From a virus (taxonomy: Duplodnaviria; Heunggongvirae; Uroviricota; Caudoviricetes): a DNA stretch of 36,774 bases. Shown here piece by piece: positions 3,238 through 16,200 of the stretch. The stretch is from the IMG/VR virus record IMGVR_UViG_2778261162_000005, one strand, 5' to 3'. Position 1 is the first letter of the stretch. Each line of letters opens with the position of its first letter. A program made the translations under genes and the position numbers. The notes below the pieces were generated by a model. That model had not been told where the DNA came from, made no database searches, and worked only from the letters and a program-made list of their open reading frames with translations.

Positions 3238-3636
3238 TTATCTGGATTTGTTAACGTCTTTCGTCTCCTCTGGCAGATCTTCATCAAACAACCTGCCCTG
3301 CATCCGATCCAGTTCTTCTTTTCTGACCCGCTTAACCACGCTGTAGACCCACTGAAGCGAAACACCAAACTTGCGGGCCAGTTCGTGGTGGTTGCGTCCG
3401 TTAAACTCCCTGAAGATTTCCCGGTCGCGCTGACTGACCTTCCATACCATGCCCATCGGGAAATAAACGTTTTGCCCGCCCCAGACCTGCATCATTCGGT
3501 TCGCGACGGCCTGACCAATCTGGTCGGCAATTGCGGGCTCAATATCAATAATCTCGCGAACGGTCTCAGAGGTATGCTGTGCCAGCTCCACCAGGAGTTC
3601 CGGCCCTTTACTTCGAAACTGATTCAGGTCGCTCAT
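3238..3636 (-). CDS. mor: Mor/C-family transcriptional activator
   Basis: 132 aa; block QNVYFPMG...RDREIFREFNGRNHHELARKFGVSLQWVYSVVKR matches the recalled Mor pattern (VYIP.G, FNGRN, ELA..YGVS, VY..I.R). Confidence 0.7.
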   Translation of the reverse strand: MSDLNQFRSKGPELLVELAQHTSETVREIIDIEPAIADQIGQAVANRMMQVWGGQNVYFPMGMVWKVSQRDREIFREFNGRNHHELARKFGVSLQWVYSVVKRVRKEELDRMQGRLFDEDLPEETKDVNKSR

Positions 3637-4060
3637 GTTTTACTCCCGCAGCTCTGTGCTGCCACTTCTTCAGTTTCTCAATAACACTGCTTGCCTGTTC
3701 AGTATTGAGCCAGCGCAGGGCGCTGATGCCCGTTTCCCGCTTGATCCACCGCGCTAATGCATTTTCTGAACGGTCACGAACAATGCCGGCAGCAGCCATT
3801 TCAAGCCATAGCGCACGGATTTTCCTGGACTGCGGATGGTTATCCAGCGGTAAACCGGAGCTGGCTTTTCCGGCAGGCTTAACGCGAAAGCCTTTCCTTT
3901 TCATGGATTCCAGCACGCAGTTTAGTTGTGTGGTATCCATTCCTTTGGTTGAGGCTTTACCGGTCAGCCCCTGTAACATCTGGCGGTAGGTGTCTTCATC
4001 CATACCCAGTTCATTACGGGCAATATGAATGAGCTGGATAAGACGTTGTTTAGTCATCAT
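3608..4060 (-). CDS. gemA: GemA-like protein (Mu gp16 / DUF1018 family)
   Basis: Start at ATG 4060 (MMTKQRL...) with AGGAG 5 nt upstream; LIQLIHIARNELGMDEDTYRQMLQGLTGKAS pattern typical of Mu gp16-like proteins; immediately upstream of mor as in Mu. Confidence 0.6.
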   Translation of the reverse strand: MMTKQRLIQLIHIARNELGMDEDTYRQMLQGLTGKASTKGMDTTQLNCVLESMKRKGFRVKPAGKASSGLPLDNHPQSRKIRALWLEMAAAGIVRDRSENALARWIKRETGISALRWLNTEQASSVIEKLKKWQHRAAGVKHERPESVSK

Positions 4061-4265
4061 CGTTGCTCCTTTTACCTGCGCCACCGATATAATCGACATA
4101 TAAAGGAAGCGCCACAGGCCAGCACAGGAACATCACCGACCAGCTAATCCAGTAGCCGGCACCACTGTAACGTGAATAAAACCCTGAACGGCGGTGCAGT
4201 TCAGCAGTACACCAACCGACAAAACAATACCAGAACAGGGCACATACAACAGATTCAGCAGTCAT
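4050..4265 (-). CDS. Small membrane protein (71 aa), hypothetical
   Basis: ATG 4265 preceded by GGGGGGA; MTAESVVCALFWYCFVGW...; two hydrophobic segments; overlaps neighbours by a few nt (translational coupling). Confidence 0.4.
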   Translation of the reverse strand: MTAESVVCALFWYCFVGWCTAELHRRSGFYSRYSGAGYWISWSVMFLCWPVALPLYVDYIGGAGKRSNDDD

Positions 4266-4485
4266 TCTGAATATCCCCCCAACTGATATGAATATTACGG
4301 GCAGCAATGACAGGGTCGTTATTCCACCATGCACCTGACATGTATTTTTCAACCTGTTCGCGTCCGGCAATAACACCAATTGTGATCCCCGGCCTGACGT
4401 TCTTAAAAAAGGCGCGGGCAAAAAGGTATCTGGCAGATATTCGGCAGGCTTTTAATTTCCGGCTGTTACCTGATAGCGTAATCAT
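4255..4485 (-). CDS. Hypothetical early protein (76 aa)
   Basis: ATG 4485 with GGAGG 5 nt upstream and ATGA overlap with the stop of the upstream gene. Confidence 0.45.
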   Translation of the reverse strand: MITLSGNSRKLKACRISARYLFARAFFKNVRPGITIGVIAGREQVEKYMSGAWWNNDPVIAARNIHISWGDIQNDC

Positions 4486-5165
4486 CTGGCCTCCAGTTTC
4501 TGTTGTTCCTGCCCACTGACCGGGCGGTGCAGTCTGACGTTCTGCCCTTCACGAAACCCCGCATAGCGCGAGGCGTCGCCATTGCGGCTTCTTCCCGGTT
4601 GACGCGCCCTGGTGGTTTGCGTTTGCGGGTATTTATGTTCCAGCCACTGTTGCATCAGTTCACGCTCATCATCGGTCAGGGCAAAGGACTGTATTTTACT
4701 GATAACGGCCAGTACCCAGCCTTCAGCAAACTGGTCTCCACGGCTGGTACGGGTGGCGTTTTTTATTCTTTTGTTCTGTGCGCTGATATACTGCTGACGC
4801 GCCTTTTTCAGCTGGCGGACCAGCACTTCCCAGGTGTACGCAGCCAGTGCCGCTCGTTCCCGGTTACCGTAGAACCCCACAGACGGATGCGTGCCGGGGT
4901 GAATGATGGAGTTAACACCAAATGCCTCGCGGATGATGTTCATCAGGCCCAGCATGTAGCGCGGTGGACGGAGACTGCCTGTCGGCCAGTAATGACTGAT
5001 GGTTTCATCAATATCACTCATAGCAATGTCGGAATGTGTGATGCCGTGAACATCCATCAGTTTACGGGCTCGGCGCAGTGCCAGAGCGGCCTCGTGCGGG
5101 TTGCCGGATGCGGCCAGCGCCAGCAACTTTTTCAGTTTCTCAATGTGTTTATTCTGGTCTGTCAT
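4482..5165 (-). CDS. Hypothetical early protein, DUF2786-like N-terminus
   Basis: Start at ATG 5165 (MTDQNKHIEKLKKLLALAASGNPHEAALALRRARKLM...) with GGAGA upstream; N-terminal motif resembles the DUF2786 family common in prophages (recalled). Confidence 0.45.
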   Translation of the reverse strand: MTDQNKHIEKLKKLLALAASGNPHEAALALRRARKLMDVHGITHSDIAMSDIDETISHYWPTGSLRPPRYMLGLMNIIREAFGVNSIIHPGTHPSVGFYGNRERAALAAYTWEVLVRQLKKARQQYISAQNKRIKNATRTSRGDQFAEGWVLAVISKIQSFALTDDERELMQQWLEHKYPQTQTTRARQPGRSRNGDASRYAGFREGQNVRLHRPVSGQEQQKLEAR

Positions 5166-5377
5166 TGTTCTGTATCTCCGGTATTTTTCTGCCGTTTCCA
5201 TGCCCGGACAGCGTCGGACAGCTCTTTCAGGCTGTATGCTGCTTTAAGCTTTTCCCATAACCACTGTGTTGTTATGTGCATCAGCAGGGCAGCCAGGGCT
5301 GCCCCCGCACTGAGGCATGTCGCCAGGCCAGTAAGAATCAGTATCCATGCGGTGATTTCCCTGAGTATGTCAGCCAT
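5162..5377 (-). CDS. Small membrane protein (71 aa), hypothetical
   Basis: ATG 5377 with GGGAGG upstream; one TM segment (WILILTGLATCLSAGAALAALLM). Confidence 0.45.
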   Translation of the reverse strand: MADILREITAWILILTGLATCLSAGAALAALLMHITTQWLWEKLKAAYSLKELSDAVRAWKRQKNTGDTEQ

Positions 5378-6258: not shown

Positions 6259-6789
6259 TTACTGCACATCCTGCTCAAAAGGAATTATTGAAAAATCCTC
6301 AATATCACTTTTTATGGTAATGCCGGGAATATTTTTCACGGCCTCTTTTTCATTCAGAATGGCATCTTTATTTATTTCCTCTTTTACACGAATAAAGCGC
6401 TCAAGCCCCAGACGTCTCAGTAGTTCAATAACATTATCCGCTCCACGGATACTGACTGATGGCGGACGGTTTCGCCATTGCACCTCGCCGGTGGTGAGGT
6501 TAGCGAACTTCACCTTCCCGTTGCCGGTCAGTTCATCACGGTGTGCCTCACACCATGTCTGGATACCGGACTGCAGTTCTGACATGCGTTTTTTCAGGCT
6601 CTCGGTGAGCGGGGCATAACGTGCGGTGATATCGCCAATGGCGTCATTCATTTCTGTTTCAGCCCTGACCAGTTCACGTTGTGCGTCACCGAGCAGTCTG
6701 ATGCCCTCAATGACCTCTTCGCGTGTCCCCGGTACCCAGAGTGCCGCTGCGGACTTGATACGTTTTGCCCCTTTTGTACTTTTTGCCAT
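6259..6789 (-). CDS. gam: Host-nuclease inhibitor protein Gam (Mu Gam family)
   Basis: 176 aa; MAKSTKGAKRIKSAAALWVP...RPPSVSIRG...GITIKSDIEDFSIIPFEQ closely parallels Mu Gam as recalled. Confidence 0.85.
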   Translation of the reverse strand: MAKSTKGAKRIKSAAALWVPGTREEVIEGIRLLGDAQRELVRAETEMNDAIGDITARYAPLTESLKKRMSELQSGIQTWCEAHRDELTGNGKVKFANLTTGEVQWRNRPPSVSIRGADNVIELLRRLGLERFIRVKEEINKDAILNEKEAVKNIPGITIKSDIEDFSIIPFEQDVQ

Positions 6790-7088: not shown

Positions 7089-8255
7089 TTAAACCCCTTT
7101 GACAACGTCAGCGTTGACCTGTGGAACCCCGATTTCAGCGGCCAGATTCATGGCGGCTATCACCAGGTTACTGACGGCCAGCGGATACAGCAGGCTGACC
7201 CTGTTTTTACGATGACTTCCCGGATTGCTCAGGCGGGCACGTATGGCATCCACTGCGCCGGCGTCCATAATGTCCGTCAGTTGTTTACCGGCCCGTTGCA
7301 GTTTGAACGTCAGAAACTCTTCAAGGTTATTGTCGAGAGGCAGAAGTTCGACCACCTCACAGCGCTGAACGACTTCACGGACTTCCATATTGCGTTCAGA
7401 CAGTTTTGTCGCCAGTTCCGGCTGGCCAATCAGCACGATGGACAGCAGTTTTTTGAAACCGGACTCCAGCTCAAAAAAGCGTTTGAGGTGTTTCAGTGTC
7501 GGAACGGGCAGACTGTGGGCTTCCTCAATCACCAGAACGTGGCTGAACCCCGCCTGGCGGCTGTCTTTCAGGACGCGATGCAGCTGGCGAAAGCGGGCGT
7601 CCTGACTGCGTCTGATGCTTTCCAGTGGTGCGATGGTACTGATAATGGCTTCGGCAATCGCTGCTGCCTTCAGGGTTTTCCCTTTCACATCGTTGTCTTC
7701 CATGGCGATGACGTATGGCTCGATAATAATTACCGGCGCATTCTCGCGGTTGATACGTTCAGTCAGGTCACGGCGCAGCGTGGATTTACCCGCACCGGAC
7801 TCACCGATGACAGCCATAAACCCGCCATGACGGGCTGTCTGGTACAGCGCCTCACGCACGTAGCGAATGTCCGGGGTGGTGAACACATCATCAGAACCCT
7901 GCATGGCTTCGTCGGCGAACGGGTCACGGAAAAGACCAAACGCTTTTTTGGTTGCTGGAAATAACACCTGTTTTTTGAGTAACATATTCTCTTCCTCACT
8001 GAGGCTCGTTTTATCTGTGGTACCCGCTGTACGGGGCGTGGCCGCGCCCTGTACAGCATCAAAACTCTTCGCTGTATCAATCCCCTGACTTTCCAGCCAG
8101 GACGCAAGACGCCGGCGCACTTCTCCGGGGCTGGTGCGGGGCCACGCGTTATGATTCACAATCTGGGCCAGCGTGGCCTCAGAAACATCGACAGCTCTCG
8201 CCACCACCGCCTGTGGAATACGGGCCTCTTTCAGTTGCTGCTTCAGTACCAGCAT
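7089..8255 (-). CDS. Transposition target-DNA activator, MuB-like AAA+ ATPase
   Basis: Start at ATG 8255 (MLVLKQQ...) with AAGGAGG upstream; Walker A GESGAGKST, Walker B-like HVLVIEEAH; immediately downstream of the transposase. Confidence 0.75.
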   Translation of the reverse strand: MLVLKQQLKEARIPQAVVARAVDVSEATLAQIVNHNAWPRTSPGEVRRRLASWLESQGIDTAKSFDAVQGAATPRTAGTTDKTSLSEEENMLLKKQVLFPATKKAFGLFRDPFADEAMQGSDDVFTTPDIRYVREALYQTARHGGFMAVIGESGAGKSTLRRDLTERINRENAPVIIIEPYVIAMEDNDVKGKTLKAAAIAEAIISTIAPLESIRRSQDARFRQLHRVLKDSRQAGFSHVLVIEEAHSLPVPTLKHLKRFFELESGFKKLLSIVLIGQPELATKLSERNMEVREVVQRCEVVELLPLDNNLEEFLTFKLQRAGKQLTDIMDAGAVDAIRARLSNPGSHRKNRVSLLYPLAVSNLVIAAMNLAAEIGVPQVNADVVKGV

Positions 8256-10038: not shown

Positions 10039-10950
10039 TTATGCCTCCAGCCCGTTAATCTGTGGCGTCGGCTCAGTCAGCCATGAAGGCGCGACATCGC
10101 CTGTTGGCTCGTCCGGCAGGTCAAATGTGGAGCGCAGGCTACGCGCTGTGCTTTCCAGTTGACAGACCAGGCCTGCCATGAAGTCTCTGGGGGTATCAAT
10201 CATGTTTTCAGCACAATATGCGCACAGTGTCTCAAAAGCGCTGGACAGTCGAACGGCGATGGCAGATTCCGCCTCAACCGCTAATGCTGTCACTTCCGCC
10301 CGCAGCTTCTTAACCTCCTCATCAGGCTCAGGCGGCTGAATACGGGATTTCTTCTCCAGTCTGGTGGAGAGTGAGTCTATTTTTTCATTTTTGTCGGCGA
10401 GTACGCGCTGTTGTGCTGCGTTGGTTTCGCGCGCTTCGCGCAGGGCCTGACGCAATTCACGTACTGACATGCGATCAACATCGTCAAGCGTCAGTCCTGC
10501 GACTGTGCCGCCGTCGGCCAGTTCAGCAAGGTCGTCGTCATCTTCAGCAACAAGTTCAAATAATTTTGCCTTACCTAAAAGCGACAACGTTGTCGCTTTT
10601 GGCTCTAGTTTTGGTGAAAGGTATTTCAAAGATGCTTTCATCATTCGTTGTGCTGCGCGCACATGCAGACCAAGTTGTTCTTCTACAATTCCAACAAAGT
10701 CCCCGTGTGGTTCATTTTCTTTGAGAATAATAAGTCGTTTACCTGCTTCCAGCATGGCCTCAGCGCTCTGTGCCATATAAAACCGAGCCTCATGAACTAT
10801 GCGATCACGCTCATAGGGCTGACCATCGCCAAACTGCTGCATGATCTCCATGCGATGCTGTGTCATGGCGTTCAGACTGACATTGAGATCATCCGACAGC
10901 GGTACCTCGGCGTTCAGTTCAGTGTTAATCGGTGATTTGGTGCGTCCCAT
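10039..10950 (-). CDS. Hypothetical early protein (303 aa), acidic with coiled-coil-like middle
   Basis: AAGGAG upstream of ATG 10950; sits between the Ner-like gene and the transposase, a position empty in Mu. Confidence 0.5.
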   Translation of the reverse strand: MGRTKSPINTELNAEVPLSDDLNVSLNAMTQHRMEIMQQFGDGQPYERDRIVHEARFYMAQSAEAMLEAGKRLIILKENEPHGDFVGIVEEQLGLHVRAAQRMMKASLKYLSPKLEPKATTLSLLGKAKLFELVAEDDDDLAELADGGTVAGLTLDDVDRMSVRELRQALREARETNAAQQRVLADKNEKIDSLSTRLEKKSRIQPPEPDEEVKKLRAEVTALAVEAESAIAVRLSSAFETLCAYCAENMIDTPRDFMAGLVCQLESTARSLRSTFDLPDEPTGDVAPSWLTEPTPQINGLEA

Positions 10951-10960
10951 TTATTACTCC

Positions 10961-11269
10961 TTACAAACGACTACCTGAAATGACACGTTGGTTGATTTCG
11001 TTAATGCGATCCTGTGCACGTGCCATCTCGTTACTGTGGGCCATAGCGATCTGCAGTAACTGGATGCCCGGCGCGAAACGCCCGTTTTCCAGTTTCAGGG
11101 CCAACCCTTCTTCAATGAGGGTGTTGAGTGCCCGGTTGATGTTTGCCGGTGACTCGTGCAGTGCTGCCGCCAGTTCACCGTTGGAAATACCGTTCAGGGC
11201 ATGACCGCGCAGCGCTTTGAGTACCCGGAGGATGCGACTGCCGGAGCTTGAAACATTCGTCTTACTCAT
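10961..11269 (-). CDS. Winged-helix DNA-binding protein (IclR/MarR-like HTH)
   Basis: Start at ATG 11269 with AGAGG 8 nt upstream; ILRVLKALRGHALNGISNGELAAALHESPANINRALNTLIEEGLA resembles an IclR-type N-terminal HTH. Confidence 0.45.
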   Translation of the reverse strand: MSKTNVSSSGSRILRVLKALRGHALNGISNGELAAALHESPANINRALNTLIEEGLALKLENGRFAPGIQLLQIAMAHSNEMARAQDRINEINQRVISGSRL

Positions 11270-11321
11270 CTGCATACCTCTTTTGCGATATGTGATAACC
11301 TTTTACAAAGACTCAAAATCT

Positions 11322-11510
11322 TCAGGCTGCCTGAGCTGTTGATTTCAGCCCCAACTTCACGGCGATTTCATGGGATTTACCGTAACGGGCTTTGGTCTGC
11401 CCATTGAGAACGCGGTATACCTCATTGCGGTTGTAGCCGTTTTCTTCTGCCCAGCGGGTGAAAGTGATCCCGCGCTGGCGGAAGAGAGCTTTGACTTGTT
11501 CTGCAGTCAT
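11322..11510 (-). CDS. Ner/Cro-like small DNA-binding protein, first gene of the early operon
   Basis: 62 aa; AAGGAGA 6 nt upstream; divergent from the repressor gene, the position Ner occupies in Mu. Confidence 0.5.
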   Translation of the reverse strand: MTAEQVKALFRQRGITFTRWAEENGYNRNEVYRVLNGQTKARYGKSHEIAVKLGLKSTAQAA

Positions 11511-11610
11511 CGTTGTCTCCTTTGTTGATGCAATGATGTTTGCCTTATGTGTGATAGATTATGGTGCAGATTATCTCACCAGTCAACTTAAAGAGTGCAG
11601 AAAAACTCAC
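11511..11610. promoter_or_regulatory. Divergent early/repressor promoter-operator region
   Basis: 100-bp gap between divergent starts; contains direct repeats AGATTAT (x2) within TGATAGATTATGGTGCAGATTATCTCA. Confidence 0.45.
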
Positions 11611-11949
11611 ATGATCGGGTTACGTATTAAAGAAGAAAGAGAGCGTCTATCTCTTACACAGCAAGGGTTGGCTGATGCTATAGGTGTGGCAAAGAGAACT
11701 TTCATTGATTGGGAAAAAGATCGCACTTCTCCTACTGCAGTGCAGTTATCTGCACTATCAGAAATCGGTGTAGATATTTTGTATGTAGTTACTGGGGTGC
11801 GGAGTCAGCCTGTTGTTGCACCTTATGTGTCACAAGAAAAGAAAGAGTTAATGGATGCATTCGACGAAATGAGCCCCGAACAACGGAGGGCAATTCTTGA
11901 GGTCGGCAAAGTCTTCATTCAACCCAAACCAAGCAAACTCGCAGGCTGA
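11611..11949 (+). CDS. XRE-family HTH repressor (c-like)
   Basis: MIGLRIKEERERLSLTQQGLADAIGVAKRTFIDWEKDRTSP is a typical XRE HTH; divergent from the early operon. Confidence 0.6.
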   Translation: MIGLRIKEERERLSLTQQGLADAIGVAKRTFIDWEKDRTSPTAVQLSALSEIGVDILYVVTGVRSQPVVAPYVSQEKKELMDAFDEMSPEQRRAILEVGKVFIQPKPSKLAG

Positions 11950-12035
11950 TTTTGACCTGGACACAAAGGGCGCGTGGTTGATCTGGATGCTTTCAGAAAA
12001 CATCGCCAGTGACATAGTGGAAGTTGTTTGGTTTA

Positions 12036-12065
12036 CCGGAAAGCATTGTGCTTTCCGGTTTTGTT
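12036..12065 (+). terminator. Rho-independent terminator after the repressor gene
   Basis: CCGGAAAG-CATTGTG-CTTTCCGG followed by TTTTGTT, between convergent repressor and Dam genes. Confidence 0.55.
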
Positions 12066-12829
12066 CAGAAGTTGCAGATTACCAGTTCACGGCGTGGCGT
12101 GGGTTTCCCCGCCAGACTGTAGTTGATATTCACCGTCTGTATGTTCAGTTCAGTGAACACCCGACGCATCTGCGGAATGTCATTCACCGAGATAATCATC
12201 TTTCCTCTGATGCACCGTGCCAGTTCTGCGAGTAGTGTGTAGTTCTCTTCAGGAAAATCCACACCATAGCCTTCCGTCCCCAGATAGGGCGGATCACAGT
12301 AGAACAGCGTGTGCGGACGGTCATAACGCTTAATGCACTGGTGCCAGTCCATGTGTTCTATCACCGTTCTGGAAAGCCGCAGGTGTGCCGCTGACAGTTC
12401 TTCTTCAATCCGTAGCAGGTTGAAGCGTGGCGGGGAGGTGGTGGAGGTGCCGAAGCTGTGCTCTGCCACCTTGCCCCCAAACGCCTGCTTCTGGAGGTAG
12501 TAGAACCGTGCCGCACGCTGGATATCCGTCAGTGTTTCTTCCGGGGTGATCTGCAGCCATTTGTAGATCTGCCGGCTAACCAGCGCCCATTTGAATTGGC
12601 GGACAAATTCTTCCAGATGATGCTTTACTACCCGATACAGATTTACCAGTTCACCGTTGATATCGTTAATGACTTCGATCTTGCTGGGAGTCTTGAGAAA
12701 ATAAAGTGCTGCTGCGCCGCAGAATGGCTCCACATAGCAGGTATGGAGTGGGAACTGAGGCAGAATGTGTTTGGCCAGACGACGTTTTCCCCCAATCCAG
12801 GGGACGATGGGTAAAGATTGTTCTTTCAT
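12065..12829 (-). CDS. DNA N6-adenine methyltransferase, Dam-like (D12 class)
   Basis: Start at ATG 12829 (MKEQSLPIVPWIGGKRRL...); FCGAAAL AdoMet motif and DPPY catalytic motif. Confidence 0.8.
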   Translation of the reverse strand: MKEQSLPIVPWIGGKRRLAKHILPQFPLHTCYVEPFCGAAALYFLKTPSKIEVINDINGELVNLYRVVKHHLEEFVRQFKWALVSRQIYKWLQITPEETLTDIQRAARFYYLQKQAFGGKVAEHSFGTSTTSPPRFNLLRIEEELSAAHLRLSRTVIEHMDWHQCIKRYDRPHTLFYCDPPYLGTEGYGVDFPEENYTLLAELARCIRGKMIISVNDIPQMRRVFTELNIQTVNINYSLAGKPTPRRELVICNF

Positions 12830-12935
12830 TATCTGTAAGCCTTTTTCATTAGATGAAAATGCGATAGGCTTCCCTTGTTCTCGAGAACGGAAGAGCCTCG
12901 GTTGACTCACAGCTCATACCTGTAAGTTGATGACT
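12786..12935. repeat. Direct repeat copy 1 (Dam 5' end plus upstream region)
   Basis: Aligns by hand with 13419-13565; shared blocks CCAATCCA.GG.ACGATGGGTAA, TTTCAT.ATCTGTAA and CCTCGGT.G.CTCACAG..CAT.CCTGT. Confidence 0.6.
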
Positions 12936-12964
12936 CGCCTTGTGTTCGCTGCACAAGGTGAGTC
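12932..12964. promoter_or_regulatory. Imperfect palindrome upstream of P1 (hairpin or operator)
   Basis: GACTCGCCTTGTG-TTCGCTG-CACAAGGTGAGTC followed by GCTCTTTTC; GACTC/GAGTC motif occurs three times in 12903-12964. Confidence 0.4.
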
Positions 12965-13023
12965 GCTCTTTTCATGTTATTTGCATATTTCATGGGCGAC
13001 AATTAAAGGGAGTTACTAATACC

Positions 13024-13404
13024 ATGGCCCCAAAAAATATTGAGCGGTTTAATGAAATAGTTGGTGAGATATTTGGGAGACTCTACGAATCTTTCCCCGT
13101 CAAAATTGATATAAAGGCAGTTGATATCGTTAGACAGAATGAACTTACTTTTTTTCTTGATACCGTAGACTGGCTTAAAAACAGTGGCTATTTAATCGGG
13201 GCGCGTAGTTCTGGGGGGATCCACAACGCAGTGCTAACGGCTAAAGGTCTTGAGGTATTAAACGCTACGCCTGGAAGTCTGGAAAAACCGTTGGGGGCCA
13301 GAATATCTGACTCTATAAAAATTGAAGGGAAAGAAGCGTTGCGATCACTGGTTAGCCAGACTCTAGGAATAGGTCTGCAATATATGTCTCGTGGTCTTAT
13401 GTAA
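13024..13404 (+). CDS. Hypothetical protein P1 (126 aa), paralog of 13868-14272; unknown family
   Basis: ATG 13024 (MAPKNIERFNEIVGEIFGRL...); body visibly AT-rich; shares GxIFxRL, F(L/I)DTxxWL and VLTxKxLxxLNAxP motifs with P2. Confidence 0.6.
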   Translation: MAPKNIERFNEIVGEIFGRLYESFPVKIDIKAVDIVRQNELTFFLDTVDWLKNSGYLIGARSSGGIHNAVLTAKGLEVLNATPGSLEKPLGARISDSIKIEGKEALRSLVSQTLGIGLQYMSRGLM

Positions 13405-13464
13405 TATCGCAAGGCAGCGTTTGCCACCAATCCATGGAACGATGGGTAATGTCTGCGTTTTCAT
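13363..13464 (-). pseudogene. Truncated Dam 5' fragment (copy 2)
   Basis: Minus-strand ATG 13464: MKTQTLPIVPWIGGKR matches the Dam N-terminus, then the frame runs into the antisense of the P1 3' end and stops after 33 codons. Confidence 0.55.
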
Positions 13465-13565
13465 AATCTGTAAACATTTTACAATTATTAAAAATATGGC
13501 AGGCTAGTCTGGTCTCACGAGACTGACTGAACCTCGGTCGGCTCACAGTGCATTCCTGTGGGACG
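13419..13565. repeat. Direct repeat copy 2 (Dam 5' fragment plus upstream region)
   Basis: See copy 1; same orientation, immediately 3' of P1. Confidence 0.6.
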
Positions 13566-13609
13566 ATGGCCAGCCCGGCTTTCGGGTGCCGGGCTGGTCG
13601 TTCTTTCAT
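13562..13609 (-). pseudogene. Dam 5' fragment (copy 3) interrupted by a 28-bp palindrome
   Basis: Minus strand ATGAAAGAAC...CCATCGTCCC matches the Dam start, with CCAGCCCGG-CACCCGAAAG-CCGGGCTGG inserted between; on the plus strand the palindrome is followed by TCGTTCTTTC (terminator-like). Confidence 0.5.
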
Positions 13610-13653
13610 GATGCGGCAGGGATAGTGGGATTTCTGTTAATGCGGTTTAGGGA

Positions 13654-13869
13654 TTATCCGGGGTGATTTTCTGACCTTATCTGGTCCAGGGCGTAAGTGA
13701 GCCCTTCTGCAAAAACAGAAGTATCAAACTGCTTTTGTATTTCCTGAAAATGAACAGTGGCACGACAGATACTCAGTTCTCCGCGATGTAACCGGATAAT
13801 ATCTTCCAGAACATTGTTCACTGCTTCAGCACGGCGCTGATGTTCTGTTAACGTTAATCGGGGATTCAT
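13654..13869 (-). CDS. Hypothetical small protein (71 aa)
   Basis: ATG 13869 with AAGGAG 7 nt upstream; charged, helix-prone; its start overlaps the P2 start on the opposite strand. Confidence 0.35.
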   Translation of the reverse strand: MNPRLTLTEHQRRAEAVNNVLEDIIRLHRGELSICRATVHFQEIQKQFDTSVFAEGLTYALDQIRSENHPG

Positions 13870-14272
13870 GATGCACTCCTTAAATGATGATTTTTATGTA
13901 CTCACCGGCAAAATATTCTGCCGATTACTGAACACGCATCCGGTACCTCAGGTTTTGATTTATTCTGGTTTTTTCGATATCCCGGACCAGGTTGATCACG
14001 ACCAGAAAAAGTGCCGGTATTTTATTGATACGCTGATATGGCTTCGGGATAACAGCTATATTCGTTACTCTCAGTTGCTGGCTGTGGGAGCGGCTGATGT
14101 CGTCCTCACGGAAAAAACGCTCTGTCTGCTCAATGCCATGCCGACCTTTCTGCAGCCCCGGCCCGTGCCATTTAAAGAGTCGCTTCTGGATGCAGTAAAA
14201 ACCGGTGAAAATGCAGTCATCGCTGAATGCGTATCCCGGATTATGCGTTACGTGTTTAATGAACGTAAGTGA
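13868..14272 (+). CDS. Hypothetical protein P2 (134 aa), paralog of 13024-13404; unknown family
   Basis: N-termini of P1 and P2 align without gaps from the first Met (F9, G14, I16, F17), supporting this start. Confidence 0.55.
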   Translation: MMHSLNDDFYVLTGKIFCRLLNTHPVPQVLIYSGFFDIPDQVDHDQKKCRYFIDTLIWLRDNSYIRYSQLLAVGAADVVLTEKTLCLLNAMPTFLQPRPVPFKESLLDAVKTGENAVIAECVSRIMRYVFNERK

Positions 14273-14991
14273 GGTTTATCCGTTGTCTGCATAATCCCGA
14301 TAGCCAGTGCGAGGGGAAGCAATTCCGGGGAAACTTTTTCAAACAGCGATTCCCATTCTCCTCTCGCCATCACTCTGTCCAGCCCGCCCTCCAGCTGCAT
14401 TTCAGCAATCTTCCTGATTTCCCGGAACAACGCCGCTTTGATCTCTTCATGCTCAGCTTTATTTTCCGGTGTCAGAATGTATTCGTCGAAGAACCGGGGA
14501 GGCTGGTTAACGGGGATTGTGTTCACCGGGATGTGTTCCTGCTTCCCGTACTTCGGGGCCGAAAAACATTCTGTTGGCTGACCAGCGAGTTTACGTAACT
14601 CCTTCATGAGCAGCTCCTGATCGTAAACTGTCATCAGTGCCGCAATGGTGGCATGCAGTGCATCGGGCAGTATCCAGGGTTGCCGGCCCGTGGGGCATAT
14701 AACATCCAGCAGCTCATTCGTCCGACAGATACGCTCCTCGCCGTATGACAACAGGCCCTGTCCCGTGTATTCCTCCAGCCTGATCACTGTGCCAGCCCGT
14801 GGCTTCTGCCAGGTCGTCAGATCATCGCCACTCATACGGCGCTCATTCTCCACGTCAGCAGCATCGACAATGACGCTGTTTCCGAGTTCCTGTTTCACCA
14901 TCTCTTCTATCCGCGCCAGTACGTAACTTTTACCGCTGCCCACAGGACCGGACACAGTGACAGTGATGACCGGATTCAGTGTGTGCGTCAT
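14248..14991 (-). CDS. P-loop NTPase / kinase-like protein of unknown type
   Basis: 247 aa; Walker A GPVGSGKS at residues 15-22, Walker B-like VIVDAAD; C-terminal about 170 aa without recognisable motif. Confidence 0.6.
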   Translation of the reverse strand: MTHTLNPVITVTVSGPVGSGKSYVLARIEEMVKQELGNSVIVDAADVENERRMSGDDLTTWQKPRAGTVIRLEEYTGQGLLSYGEERICRTNELLDVICPTGRQPWILPDALHATIAALMTVYDQELLMKELRKLAGQPTECFSAPKYGKQEHIPVNTIPVNQPPRFFDEYILTPENKAEHEEIKAALFREIRKIAEMQLEGGLDRVMARGEWESLFEKVSPELLPLALAIGIMQTTDKPHLRSLNT

Positions 14992-15121
14992 ATCGTATTC
15001 TCCTCTGTGAATAATTCATCGTTTATCCTGCACACCCCGTATCCCCGGCTCTCTTAACGCGCTTTAAAATCCTTCGCGCCCTGTATTTGTGATGCTGTCT
15101 CCACCAGACAAGGAGACACAC

Positions 15122-15472
15122 ATGAAAAGCCTGAAAAAATTCATTCCCCCTGTTAAAAAACCTCGCCTCAGCGGCTGGCTGCTGACCTCAGTGCTGTTGC
15201 TGGGCACCATCGCTCTGGTCTCGCCACAGCAGTTGCCTGTTGTGATCTACAAGCTGGCACTCATCACGCTGGCAGCAGTGCTGGGTTACTGGCTTGACCG
15301 TTCGCTCTTCCCCAAAGCCCGTCCCGGTCAGTACCTGAAACATGACGACAGGCTGATGGCTGAAGGGCGTTTCCCTGTGCAGACCGGCCTTCACCTTGTG
15401 TTTGCTGCTGCGTTAATCCGCCGTGCACTGATTGTTGCAGCGATCTGTCTGGCTGTGGCAACAGGACTGTGA
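15122..15472 (+). CDS. Putative holin (3 predicted TM segments)
   Basis: 116 aa, GGAGA RBS; three hydrophobic helices; first gene of the lysis cassette. Confidence 0.5.
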   Translation: MKSLKKFIPPVKKPRLSGWLLTSVLLLGTIALVSPQQLPVVIYKLALITLAAVLGYWLDRSLFPKARPGQYLKHDDRLMAEGRFPVQTGLHLVFAAALIRRALIVAAICLAVATGL

Positions 15473-15474
15473 CC

Positions 15475-16200
15475 ATGAACTGGCCTCAAATCACCCTCAT
15501 TATTCTGTTCGCCTTTGGTCTGGGCGTAACCGCCATCAGACACGGAGAACCACGTAACGATAAATACAGCTTCTGGTGGCAACTTACTGGCAACCTGGTG
15601 ATTGTCTGGCTGCTCTGGTGTGGCGGCTTCTTCAGTCAGGCCCGCGCAGCGCAGCCTCCGCAGGCTGCGCTGCAGTATCGCGATGATGTGATCCGTAATG
15701 CCCGGCTTGAATGGGGACTGTCTGCGCCGGTGGCTGATTTCGCTGCGCAACTGCATCAGGAAAGCGGCTGGCGACCTGATGCGATCTCGCCGGCTGGCGC
15801 TCAGGGACTGGCGCAGTTTATGCCTGCCACTGCCGACTGGATAAGCCAGTTGATGCCGGCGCTGAGCAGTCGAGAGCCGTTTAATCCGGCATGGGCTATC
15901 CGGGCGCTGGTCAGTTATGACCGCTGGCTGTGGCAGCGCGTCAGCGCCGCCAACGACTGCGAGCGTATGGCCATGACACTGTCGGGCTATAACGGTGGTC
16001 TGGGCTGGGTACAGCGGGACAGGCAACTTGCATCACAGAAAGGGCTGGACCGTACCCGCTGGTTCGGACATGTCGCCACGGTGAATGCCGGACGCAATGC
16101 TGCCAGCTGGCGGGAGAACCGTCATTATCCCCAGCGCATCCTGTTCACGCTGGCCCCGCGTTATCTCTCATGGGGAGGGGCAAGCTGTGTGGGTACGTAA
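15475..16200 (+). CDS. Lytic transglycosylase endolysin (SLT domain) with two N-terminal TM segments
   Basis: ESGWRPDAISPAGAQGLAQFMP is the SLT catalytic signature; about 55 aa of two hydrophobic helices precede it. Confidence 0.7.
   Translation: MNWPQITLIILFAFGLGVTAIRHGEPRNDKYSFWWQLTGNLVIVWLLWCGGFFSQARAAQPPQAALQYRDDVIRNARLEWGLSAPVADFAAQLHQESGWRPDAISPAGAQGLAQFMPATADWISQLMPALSSREPFNPAWAIRALVSYDRWLWQRVSAANDCERMAMTLSGYNGGLGWVQRDRQLASQKGLDRTRWFGHVATVNAGRNAASWRENRHYPQRILFTLAPRYLSWGGASCVGT

Follow-up and report, generated by a model that had tools for sequence, protein, structure and literature searches.

A start-codon-sharing gene cassette of the phrog_2266 family in a BcepMu-like prophage of Escherichia coli

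Phage morons are extra, independently transcribed genes that lie between conserved genes; bor of phage lambda runs against late transcription. Two genes with moron-like traits, P1 and P2, are described here in a viral DNA stretch of 36,774 nucleotides (IMG/VR record IMGVR_UViG_2778261162_000005, hereafter the window; coordinates refer to it unless another sequence is named). P1 (13024..13404, plus strand, from its open reading frame (ORF) and alignment) encodes 126 aa and P2 (13868..14272, plus strand) 134 aa. P2 starts head-to-head with orf71 (13654..13869, minus strand, 71 aa), which we refer to as its partner. Like morons, these genes are present or absent between syntenic phages: P1 is absent from Escherichia phage PhiKM, and both P1 and P2 are absent from Klebsiella phage KP12 and from E. 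coli CE10. Their base composition is atypical, with a GC content of 42-46% for P1, orf71 and P2 (42.3% for P1) vs 54.8% for the prophage, and they are inserted among packed late genes in the opposite orientation. Unlike morons, P2 and orf71 constitute a unit of two genes whose starts overlap and whose ribosome-binding sites are reciprocally embedded; the unit's own promoter and terminator are putative.

A second group of described systems occupies the stretch between gpA and gpQ in P2-like phages, a hotspot of anti-phage systems that include old, tin, PARIS and others (Rousset et al., PMC9122126). In the related hotspots of P4 satellites, many unknown genes proved to be defensive on testing, and among the P2-like prophages of a large survey about half carried defence systems, but only 28 had anti-defence systems (PMC13586616). 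The P2-like phages Midge and ST147-VIM1phi7.1 carry a cassette of the present type in this same locus. Unlike the systems described there, however, the cassette shows no similarity to PADLOC models, and in other phage types it is found inside structural operons.

At the protein level, P1 and P2 match phrog_2266 of the PHROGs database over their full length, orf71 matches phrog_4490 (E 4.8e-50), and a 247-aa gene convergent with P2 matches phrog_3787. None of the three families carries a function. No literature on them, and no description of their linkage, was found, and literature searches with DUF2513, the PHROG identifiers, RefSeq protein identifiers and BcepMu morons returned nothing on these proteins. 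Relatives are publicly named 'hypothetical' and, in a few cases, 'DUF2513 domain-containing'. The latter label, which some homologues carry in UniRef, refers to phage-associated winged-helix proteins of unknown function, such as Bacillus subtilis YjcQ (PDB 2hgc). YjcQ is indeed among the best Foldseek matches to a structural model of P1 (probability 0.84, 31% identity over 78 columns); unlike P1, it is without a C-terminal hairpin, and the match has an E-value of only 0.09. Membership in DUF2513 (PF10711) was rejected: neither P1 nor P2 matches it at E<=1, two of 22 relatives do so at E 0.043, which falls far short of the cut-off, and the UniRef-labelled 'DUF2513' members P0012, P0015 and P0022 have no PF10711 match at E<=10 in the current Pfam. 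A likeness to T7 gp5.5/gp5.7, noted by the annotators of Midge from HHpred, was likewise rejected, with hhalign probabilities of 0.1% and 0.3% and only a generic post-wing 'LTxxG' aligned.

P1 and P2 also recall Mor and C of phage Mu, in that they are paralogues of about 130 aa encoded by a Mu-like phage, with one member just upstream of the lysis genes. This analogy was discarded because the true Mor homologue of the prophage is found elsewhere (3241-3636, minus strand, E 1.1e-43). P1 and P2 have no PF08765 match, and related phages can do without them.

A conserved head-to-head cassette

The homology of P1 and P2 is real. In a single BLASTP comparison they share 28% identity and 48% positives across 120 aa (E 4e-12), a similarity far above chance. 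Residues 3-122 of P1 align with positions 2-143 of the 144-column phrog_2266 profile (E 9.6e-36), and residues 2-133 of P2 with positions 1-142 (E 8.1e-45). Three motif pairs, namely GEIFGRL/GKIFCRL, FLDTVDWL/FIDTLIWL and VLTAKGLEVLNATP/VLTEKTLCLLNAMP, coincide with the best-conserved columns of the family. The paralogy, the coordinates and the three motifs had been proposed in an earlier, sequence-only reading of the window, and all are confirmed. P1, P2 and orf71 have no significant match in Pfam, NCBIfam or PADLOC. In PADLOC-DB v2, no defence system is matched by P1, P2 or orf71, and the 247-aa protein gives only P-loop noise, with E-values of at least 0.015.

Among the representatives of clusters at 50% identity, an exhaustive profile search for the family retrieved 1,882 with E<=1e-3, and 1,122 with E<=1e-10. 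Stand-alone proteins of 125-160 aa make up most of the 150 best matches listed. By word-index search, relatives were detected in Escherichia, Salmonella, Serratia, Brenneria, Limnobaculum and Pseudomonas. The genome loci of the family are mainly Pseudomonas prophages, and the rest are from Enterobacterales, Aeromonas, Bilophila, Desulfobacteraceae and one Phycisphaerae bin. That is, phrog_2266 is a widespread and uncharacterised prophage family, mostly of Proteobacteria. P2 belongs with a 98% identical homologue cluster that has 460 members in E. coli. Its orthologue in PhiKM (PhiKM 7236-7640, 98.5% identical) is unannotated in the GenBank record, where it appears as a 380-bp gap between two minus-strand genes. 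Because P1 is confidently modelled as a winged-helix protein (see below), we refer to members of the family as winged-helix genes or proteins.

The start codons of orf71 (complement 13867-13869) and P2 (13868-13870) share two bases, in the tetranucleotide CATG that can be read from the sequence at 13867..13870. The Shine-Dalgarno sequence of orf71, AAGGAG (13876..13881, minus strand), is located within codons 3-5 of P2, while that of P2, a Shine-Dalgarno-like GGGGA (13860..13864, plus strand), is located within codons 2-4 of orf71. In a first sample of 80 retrieved IMG/VR loci, which hold 84 family genes, a minus-strand ORF starts at or beside the family ATG in 59 cases; by BLASTP, 57 of these ORFs fall into a single cluster, that of orf71. 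The sample was extended to viral, genome and assembly loci, so as to comprise 124 family genes in 123 loci. The exact CATG overlap is found in 66 of the 124, an 8-nt overlap in 8 and other close arrangements in 4, and the remaining 46 have no partner-family ORF. Partners of the orf71 family at an overlapping CATG are 58-91 aa long. In a DNA profile built over the CATG from 52 distinct loci, GGAG is conserved at about -13 to -9 and CTCC at +8 to +11, and the serine that is frequent at position 4 of the family is accounted for by the partner's Shine-Dalgarno sequence, which is embedded there.

Since both genes have proper, embedded ribosome-binding sites, both mRNAs must reach into the opposite gene. 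Their 5' ends would therefore be complementary to each other across both sites. Leaderless transcription was also considered, and was rejected because P2 and orf71 both carry good Shine-Dalgarno sequences.

The partner frame has the signature of a coding sequence: in 22 Pseudomonas loci the codon-position entropies are 0.65/0.39/1.44, i.e., the variation is at the third position. The partner family is characterised by the motif Q..G.(M/L)D..RAR..W...L, which orf71 carries in addition to its match to the partner profile. This match (E 1.4e-21) is partly circular, as the profile includes the 89%-identical PhiKM orthologue and the copy of orf71 in an IMG/VR locus (L005) that is 100% identical to the window at P1; the membership of orf71 in the family rests independently on the BLASTP cluster of 57 partners. 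AlphaFold predicts three helices for orf71, from a shallow alignment (predicted local distance difference test score, pLDDT, 77.5), and no relatives of the partner family were found in the PDB or Pfam. As to P2, two synonymous and two non-synonymous changes separate it from its PhiKM orthologue, and the resulting ratio of non-synonymous to synonymous rates (dN/dS), 0.29, indicates purifying selection.

Thus, we conclude that P2 and orf71 are a genuine, conserved head-to-head cassette. The sequence-only reading had assigned a divergent minus-strand partner to each of P1 and P2, with Dam as that of P1. Both genes are indeed physically divergent from their minus-strand neighbours, but only P2 and orf71 are a conserved pair; the adjacency of P1 and dam is a recombination junction, as discussed below. 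The partner-less clades of the family suggest that the winged-helix protein can work alone.

Many partners found in tail tube/chaperone contexts (loci L026, L039, L040, L052, L058, L062, L065 and others) have Cys-rich tails, e.g., CRCxxCCRH or CECCCRARCSLSC. Such tails could bind metal; orf71 is without one.

A second domain of the partner type is found on the other side of P2. The 247-aa gene (14248..14991, minus strand) is convergent with P2 and covers 25 nt of its 3' end. The C-terminus of its product (residues ~182-243, encoded at 14263..14448 on the minus strand) carries the partner-family motif and matches the partner profile with E 9.4e-8 in hmmsearch, and with a probability of 94.7% and E 5.7e-8 in an independent hhalign alignment. 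The first ~155 residues contain a P-loop with the Walker A motif GPVGSGKS. This part alone constitutes a 158-aa gene in E. coli CE10 (L125 3490-3966) and in a Salmonella prophage locus (L119 5624-6100). In these BcepMu-like prophages the 158-aa gene adjoins the holin gene, and the Prokaryotic Genome Annotation Pipeline (PGAP) labels it 'ABC transporter ATPase'. In Serratia BcepMu-like phages, by comparison, the P2-like gene converges with a free-standing partner-family gene of 89 aa. The 247-aa gene thus looks like a fusion of a P-loop protein and a partner-family domain of ~65 residues. In enterobacterial BcepMu-like phages, then, the winged-helix gene lies between two opposite-strand genes of the partner type, one of which, in E. 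coli, is fused to a P-loop protein.

Placement in lytic operons and the favoured explanation

The cassette is found at many unrelated sites, whose flanking genes (terminase/gpW/portal, sheath/tube/tape-measure) were identified from their sequences. In Pseudomonas lambdoid prophages it is located between the large terminase gene and gpW/portal. Elsewhere it is found between tail tube and chaperone/tape-measure genes, or near the Q/holin region; in BcepMu-like phages it falls in the interval from dam to the lysis genes. The gpA-gpQ region of Midge and ST147-VIM1phi7.1 also holds a family gene that has the same head-to-head geometry with its partner. Orientations were counted over distinct contexts, on the basis of crude gene calls. 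The downstream neighbour of the winged-helix gene is convergent with it in 63 of 72 contexts, with stop codons that often abut or overlap, and the gene past the partner is co-directional with the partner in 26 of 39. As a rule, then, the winged-helix gene stands alone and antisense within a lytic operon, and the partner is read as part of the operon. In the window, the surrounding operon runs from the 247-aa gene through orf71 to dam.

The position of the P2 promoter may be delimited by a hairpin and T-run on the plus strand at 13565-13610, which would confine it to 13611-13860. The P2 leader would then be antisense to orf71. In L013-L022 and related Pseudomonas loci, a semi-conserved sequence, GTGATATAAAA, is found on the winged-helix gene strand between gpW and the partner's stop codon, some 250 bp before the family ATG. 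The sequence is similar to an extended -10 element; should it be the promoter, the entire partner gene would lie antisense inside the leader of the winged-helix mRNA.

We tentatively favour an explanation in which the winged-helix protein serves as an accessory effector of the moron type, with a promoter of its own and probable expression in the lysogen. Its action would depend on protein contacts and not on sequence-specific repression. The partner would be produced upon transcription of the surrounding lytic operon, and this transcription, by collision, together with pairing of the two RNAs over both ribosome-binding sites, would silence the winged-helix gene. The two proteins would thereby be expressed in opposite phases, and the partner would modulate or antagonise the winged-helix protein. 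We hold this picture, that of an accessory effector with a lytic-phase partner, at somewhat less than even confidence. Its weakest step is the role that we put forward as the likeliest, namely competition with other phages (exclusion or defence) that is relieved for the phage's own lytic growth; within the picture as a whole, such a role is rather unlikely. The most extended version is doubtful. In it, the winged-helix gene, its partner and, in BcepMu-like phages, the second partner-type domain on the P-loop protein would constitute an undescribed and widespread system of inter-phage conflict, switched by convergent transcription and by mRNA pairing across both ribosome-binding sites, with the effector made in the lysogen and its antagonist when the lytic operon fires. 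The accessory-effector explanation, which we favour, is close to an alternative that the sequence-only reading had offered, that of effector or anti-defence proteins.

Several observations weigh against the favoured explanation. No sigma-70-like promoter of 9/12 or better was found upstream of P1, P2 or orf71, and the notion of an own promoter and of expression in the lysogen derives from orientation alone. The antisense rule has exceptions, since 9 of the 72 contexts are not convergent, and in two Serratia loci (L122/L123) a P1-like gene runs the same way as the genes beside it. For the partners of 63-64 aa in P2-like phages (phrog_2454), homology to orf71 is not supported (hhalign probability 1.4%); their apparent match to the partner profile is circular, as these partners were built into it. 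Given that PADLOC returned no matches, a defence role is a prior drawn from location only. The charge of the window's own proteins is also atypical: P1 (isoelectric point (pI) 8.0) and P2 (pI 6.8) are near neutral, unlike the acidic median of the family (pI 5.0, net charge -5). Lastly, the best full-length Foldseek matches to the P1 model are to dimeric DNA-binding regulators, namely CymR/Rrf2, MntR and MarR, albeit at non-significant scores.

The predicted fold and the alternative explanations

The AlphaFold2 model of P1, obtained with a 22-sequence alignment, is confident (pLDDT 91.6, predicted template modelling score 0.87). It consists of a helix (residues 5-23), a strand (28-31), a second helix (38-53), a hairpin of two strands (57-62 and 65-71) and three further helices (73-79, 90-100 and 103-125). 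The model shows the order of a winged-helix domain, i.e., helix 1, strand, (helix 2), helix 3 and hairpin wing, and it matches known winged-helix domains. P1 is thus confidently predicted to combine a degenerate winged-helix domain with a helical hairpin at its C-terminus, and we take the family as a whole to consist of acidic proteins of 125-155 aa with this build. P1 is without helix 2 and without the ~20-aa acidic insert that most of its relatives carry; across the family, the helix 2 segment is an acidic insert of variable length. A winged helix had already been guessed in the sequence-only reading, which took the VLTxKGLEVLN-like segment for its recognition element. The fold is present in the model, but the segment is another part of it: VLT is the final strand of the wing and KGLEVLN the post-wing helix, and the equivalent of the recognition helix is FFLDTVDWLKNSGY. 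The best-conserved surface elements of the family are the N-terminal NIE(R/K)F(D/N)E, LTAKGLEVL(K/N)AxPxSL, and LGE...K...G in the C-terminal helices. A Foldseek search of the P1 model against the PDB and BFVD gave nothing at E<=1e-3, and the best match in a profile search of PDB sequences was only the winged-helix domain of AspA, at E 0.19.

The main rival to the favoured explanation is that P1 and P2 are dimeric winged-helix repressors or activators acting at their own divergent promoters, such that P2 controls orf71-dam and itself, while P1 controls dam. The fold is consistent with this proposal, and the C-terminal hairpin could mediate dimerisation. Like P1, the regulators of the Rrf2/CymR, MarR and MntR/DtxR families consist of a winged-helix domain and C-terminal helices, and are of similar size; the full-length Foldseek matches of P1 to them, mentioned above, are weak. 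MarR- and LysR-type regulators are commonly divergent from their targets, and the annotators of phage Midge named a homologue a putative transcriptional regulator. There is, in addition, a perfect 10-bp palindrome, TTAACGTTAA, close upstream of the P2 start (13848-13857, i.e., 11 bp upstream of it and within the first codons of orf71), which could be a candidate operator or a product of chance.

Against this proposal stand the chemical character of the family and its genomic distribution. Unlike in the Rrf2/CymR, MarR and MntR/DtxR families, the recognition surface is acidic or neutral, helix 2 is absent from P1 and hypervariable elsewhere, and neither sequence nor structure gives a significant match to these families (Foldseek E at least 0.03, TM-score ~0.35). 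Across 247 family members, basic residues account for 0-28% of the recognition-helix and wing columns and acidic ones for up to 59%. Most exposed positions of the recognition helix are neutral or acidic, and those basic residues that are conserved sit after the wing. That is, the conserved basic and polar DNA-contact residues that MarR- or Rrf2-like regulators have on these elements were not found in the 247 sequences. Moreover, the cassette occurs in many unrelated operons, and partner-less forms lie between terminase and gpW, with no obvious target. The prophage already has a repressor, a Ner-like protein, an IclR-like protein and Mor, and the adjacency of P1 and dam is a product of recombination. 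With an acidic family, few basic residues on the recognition helix and wing, and helix 2 missing from P1, classical DNA-binding regulators are not favoured, including the paired regulators that the sequence-only reading had put forward. We regard this rival as unlikely, though it is the foremost of the alternatives.

A further explanation is that P1 and P2 are acidic anti-defence inhibitors, e.g., nucleic-acid mimics or sponges, whose expression is regulated by orf71. Anti-CRISPR loci are likewise inserted oddly within structural operons of Mu-like phages, and small acidic phage proteins without an enzymatic motif, of patchy distribution and low GC content, would fit this description. P1 and P2 themselves are not acidic, however, and a gene that runs against the lytic operons in most contexts is a poor fit to a product of early infection. 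The P2-like phages, in turn, carry the cassette in the gpA-gpQ region, and anti-defence is rare in the survey of such phages (PMC13586616). On the orientation, charge and placement compared here, we consider anti-defence improbable.

Equally improbable, in our view, is a toxin-antitoxin or abortive-infection pair, in which one protein of the cassette is toxic and the other its antidote. The cassette is a self-contained, mobile unit of two genes, it is found in the defence hotspot of P2-like phages, and its two families have opposite median charges (pI 5.0 for the winged-helix family and 8.0 for the partner family). A type II toxin-antitoxin system, by definition, is a co-directional bicistron with recognisable domains. 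The genes here are divergent rather than co-transcribed, and they have no Pfam domains, no toxin domains and no PADLOC matches. Whole clades have the winged-helix gene alone, and the Salmonella locus L119 has lost P2 and orf71 jointly while P1 is kept.

The P1-dam junction and the prophage

The gene dam (12065..12829, minus strand, start according to PGAP) encodes a D12-class adenine methyltransferase (PF02086, E 1.1e-27). The window from 13409 to 15495 is 95% identical to PhiKM, whereas 11835-12934, which contains dam, is only 86% identical to it, i.e., the window has a different dam allele (allele B). The two PhiKM matches overlap by 163 bp of PhiKM. This overlap corresponds in the window to a direct repeat, D1 (12774-12870 vs 13409-13505, 72% identity), which consists of the dam 5' end and leader. 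P1 thus arrived with another dam allele, by recombination at the dam 5' end, and a remnant of ~66 nt was left behind. The adjacency of P1 and dam is a recombination junction; the two genes are not a unit.

The distribution of P1 is narrow. Its DNA is found in 6 of 5,426 complete E. coli genomes, whereas the region as such is found in 634 (12%) and the PhiKM-type arrangement in 456 (8%). A distance tree places P1 in a clade that comprises ten distinct sequences, all of them partner-less and nested among partnered clades, and the clade of P2 is partnered. The closest relatives of P1 are located between terminase and gpW, or immediately upstream of a holin gene. Among the 84 viral loci, two homologous genes are found only in the locus identical to the window. 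P1 and P2 are thus alternative occupants of one variable slot that recombination has united, with P1 a naturally partner-less variant, and the 28% identity between them reflects an old divergence of two subfamilies. The occupant of the slot beside dam also differs in Klebsiella phage KP12, where an unrelated plus-strand gene of 188 aa is found (L002 4956-5522; phrog_5663, function unknown); this confirms the slot as a variable accessory one.

In Salmonella prophages (L119), the block of dam, P1 and the remnant is kept, and 13666-14525 is absent, and with it orf71, P2 and the 3' portion of the 247-aa gene. These loci look like derivatives of a single deletion. The deletion (L119 5001-5642 vs window 13024-14525) suggests that P1 can stand in for the P2 cassette, or that a prophage with P1 can dispense with the cassette.

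A local tandem duplication followed by diversifying selection is a highly improbable origin of the pair: the two homologues lie on the same strand only 460 bp apart, and P1 differs from its Salmonella orthologue by one synonymous and six non-synonymous changes (very small counts), but P1 and P2 belong to different deep clades, each nearer to genes of other phages, P1 is flanked by the 72%-identical dam 5' copy and accompanied by the 86%-identical dam allele while the P2 side is 95% identical to PhiKM, the two copies co-occur in no other locus of the 84, and P2 appears to be under purifying selection. The diversifying selection that the sequence-only reading had suggested thus gives way to old divergence and recombination.

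The recombination has left two copies of the dam leader. The first (12830..13023) includes the ribosome-binding region of P1 and a 15-bp hairpin (12931-12965) that is followed by a T-run on the plus strand; the second lies with the second dam 5' end (remnant at ~13409-13475) in 13409..13653 and has its hairpin at ~13565-13600. As minus-strand RNA, both copies (12830-12978 and 13470-13612) have the same architecture of three hairpins, with z-scores of -3.9 and -3.8, even though they are only ~72% identical and their first stems are entirely different in sequence. On the plus strand, these first stems (12931-12965 and ~13565-13600), each followed by a T-run, have predicted energies of -26 and -36.5 kcal/mol (z ~-5.9) and look like strong one-way terminators; the second of these hairpins with T-run lies 160 nt past the end of P1. 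The leader structure could control the translation of dam, or could insulate the cassette from plus-strand read-through. No match to Rfam was found within 11000-15600.

The window is a BcepMu-like transposable prophage whose nearest phage record is that of PhiKM, genus Bcepmuvirus. Over the stretch searched, 12000-15000 is 100% identical to the chromosome of E. coli M-17. The integration site is kdpA, with the KdpA match at 783-2129 corresponding to profile positions 2-394 of 548. The early genes on the minus strand encode Ner-like and IclR-like proteins, the transposase, Gam (6262-6789), GemA (3611-4099) and the Mor activator; the early region also contains genes for a DUF7168/DUF2786 protein (4485-5201) and a DUF3102 protein (10042-10950). 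The repressor gene is on the plus strand at ~11536-11949, and the plus-strand lysis and late genes begin at ~15089. From the repressor to the lysis genes, the order is dam, P1, the dam 5' remnant with the second leader copy, orf71, P2 and the 247-aa gene. The ORF listing shows no plus-strand genes in this interval other than P1 and P2.

Taken together, these results turn an anonymous pair of ORFs into a defined unit, which is characterised by a common CATG, reciprocal embedded ribosome-binding sites, antisense placement in lytic operons and natural partner-less variants. The family is already catalogued, albeit uncharacterised, and no description of the cassette architecture was found in the literature. 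The adjacency of P1 and dam should not be taken as a functional link. Relative to the sequence-only reading, the pairing with Dam and the diversifying selection have become less interesting, and the locus has gained in interest through its start-codon-sharing cassette and its second domain of the partner type. If the proposed logic of expression is true, the cassette would be a compact means of coupling a prophage accessory function to the state of the life cycle. If, in addition, its role is phage exclusion, it would represent a new system of P2-like, Mu-like and lambdoid prophages.

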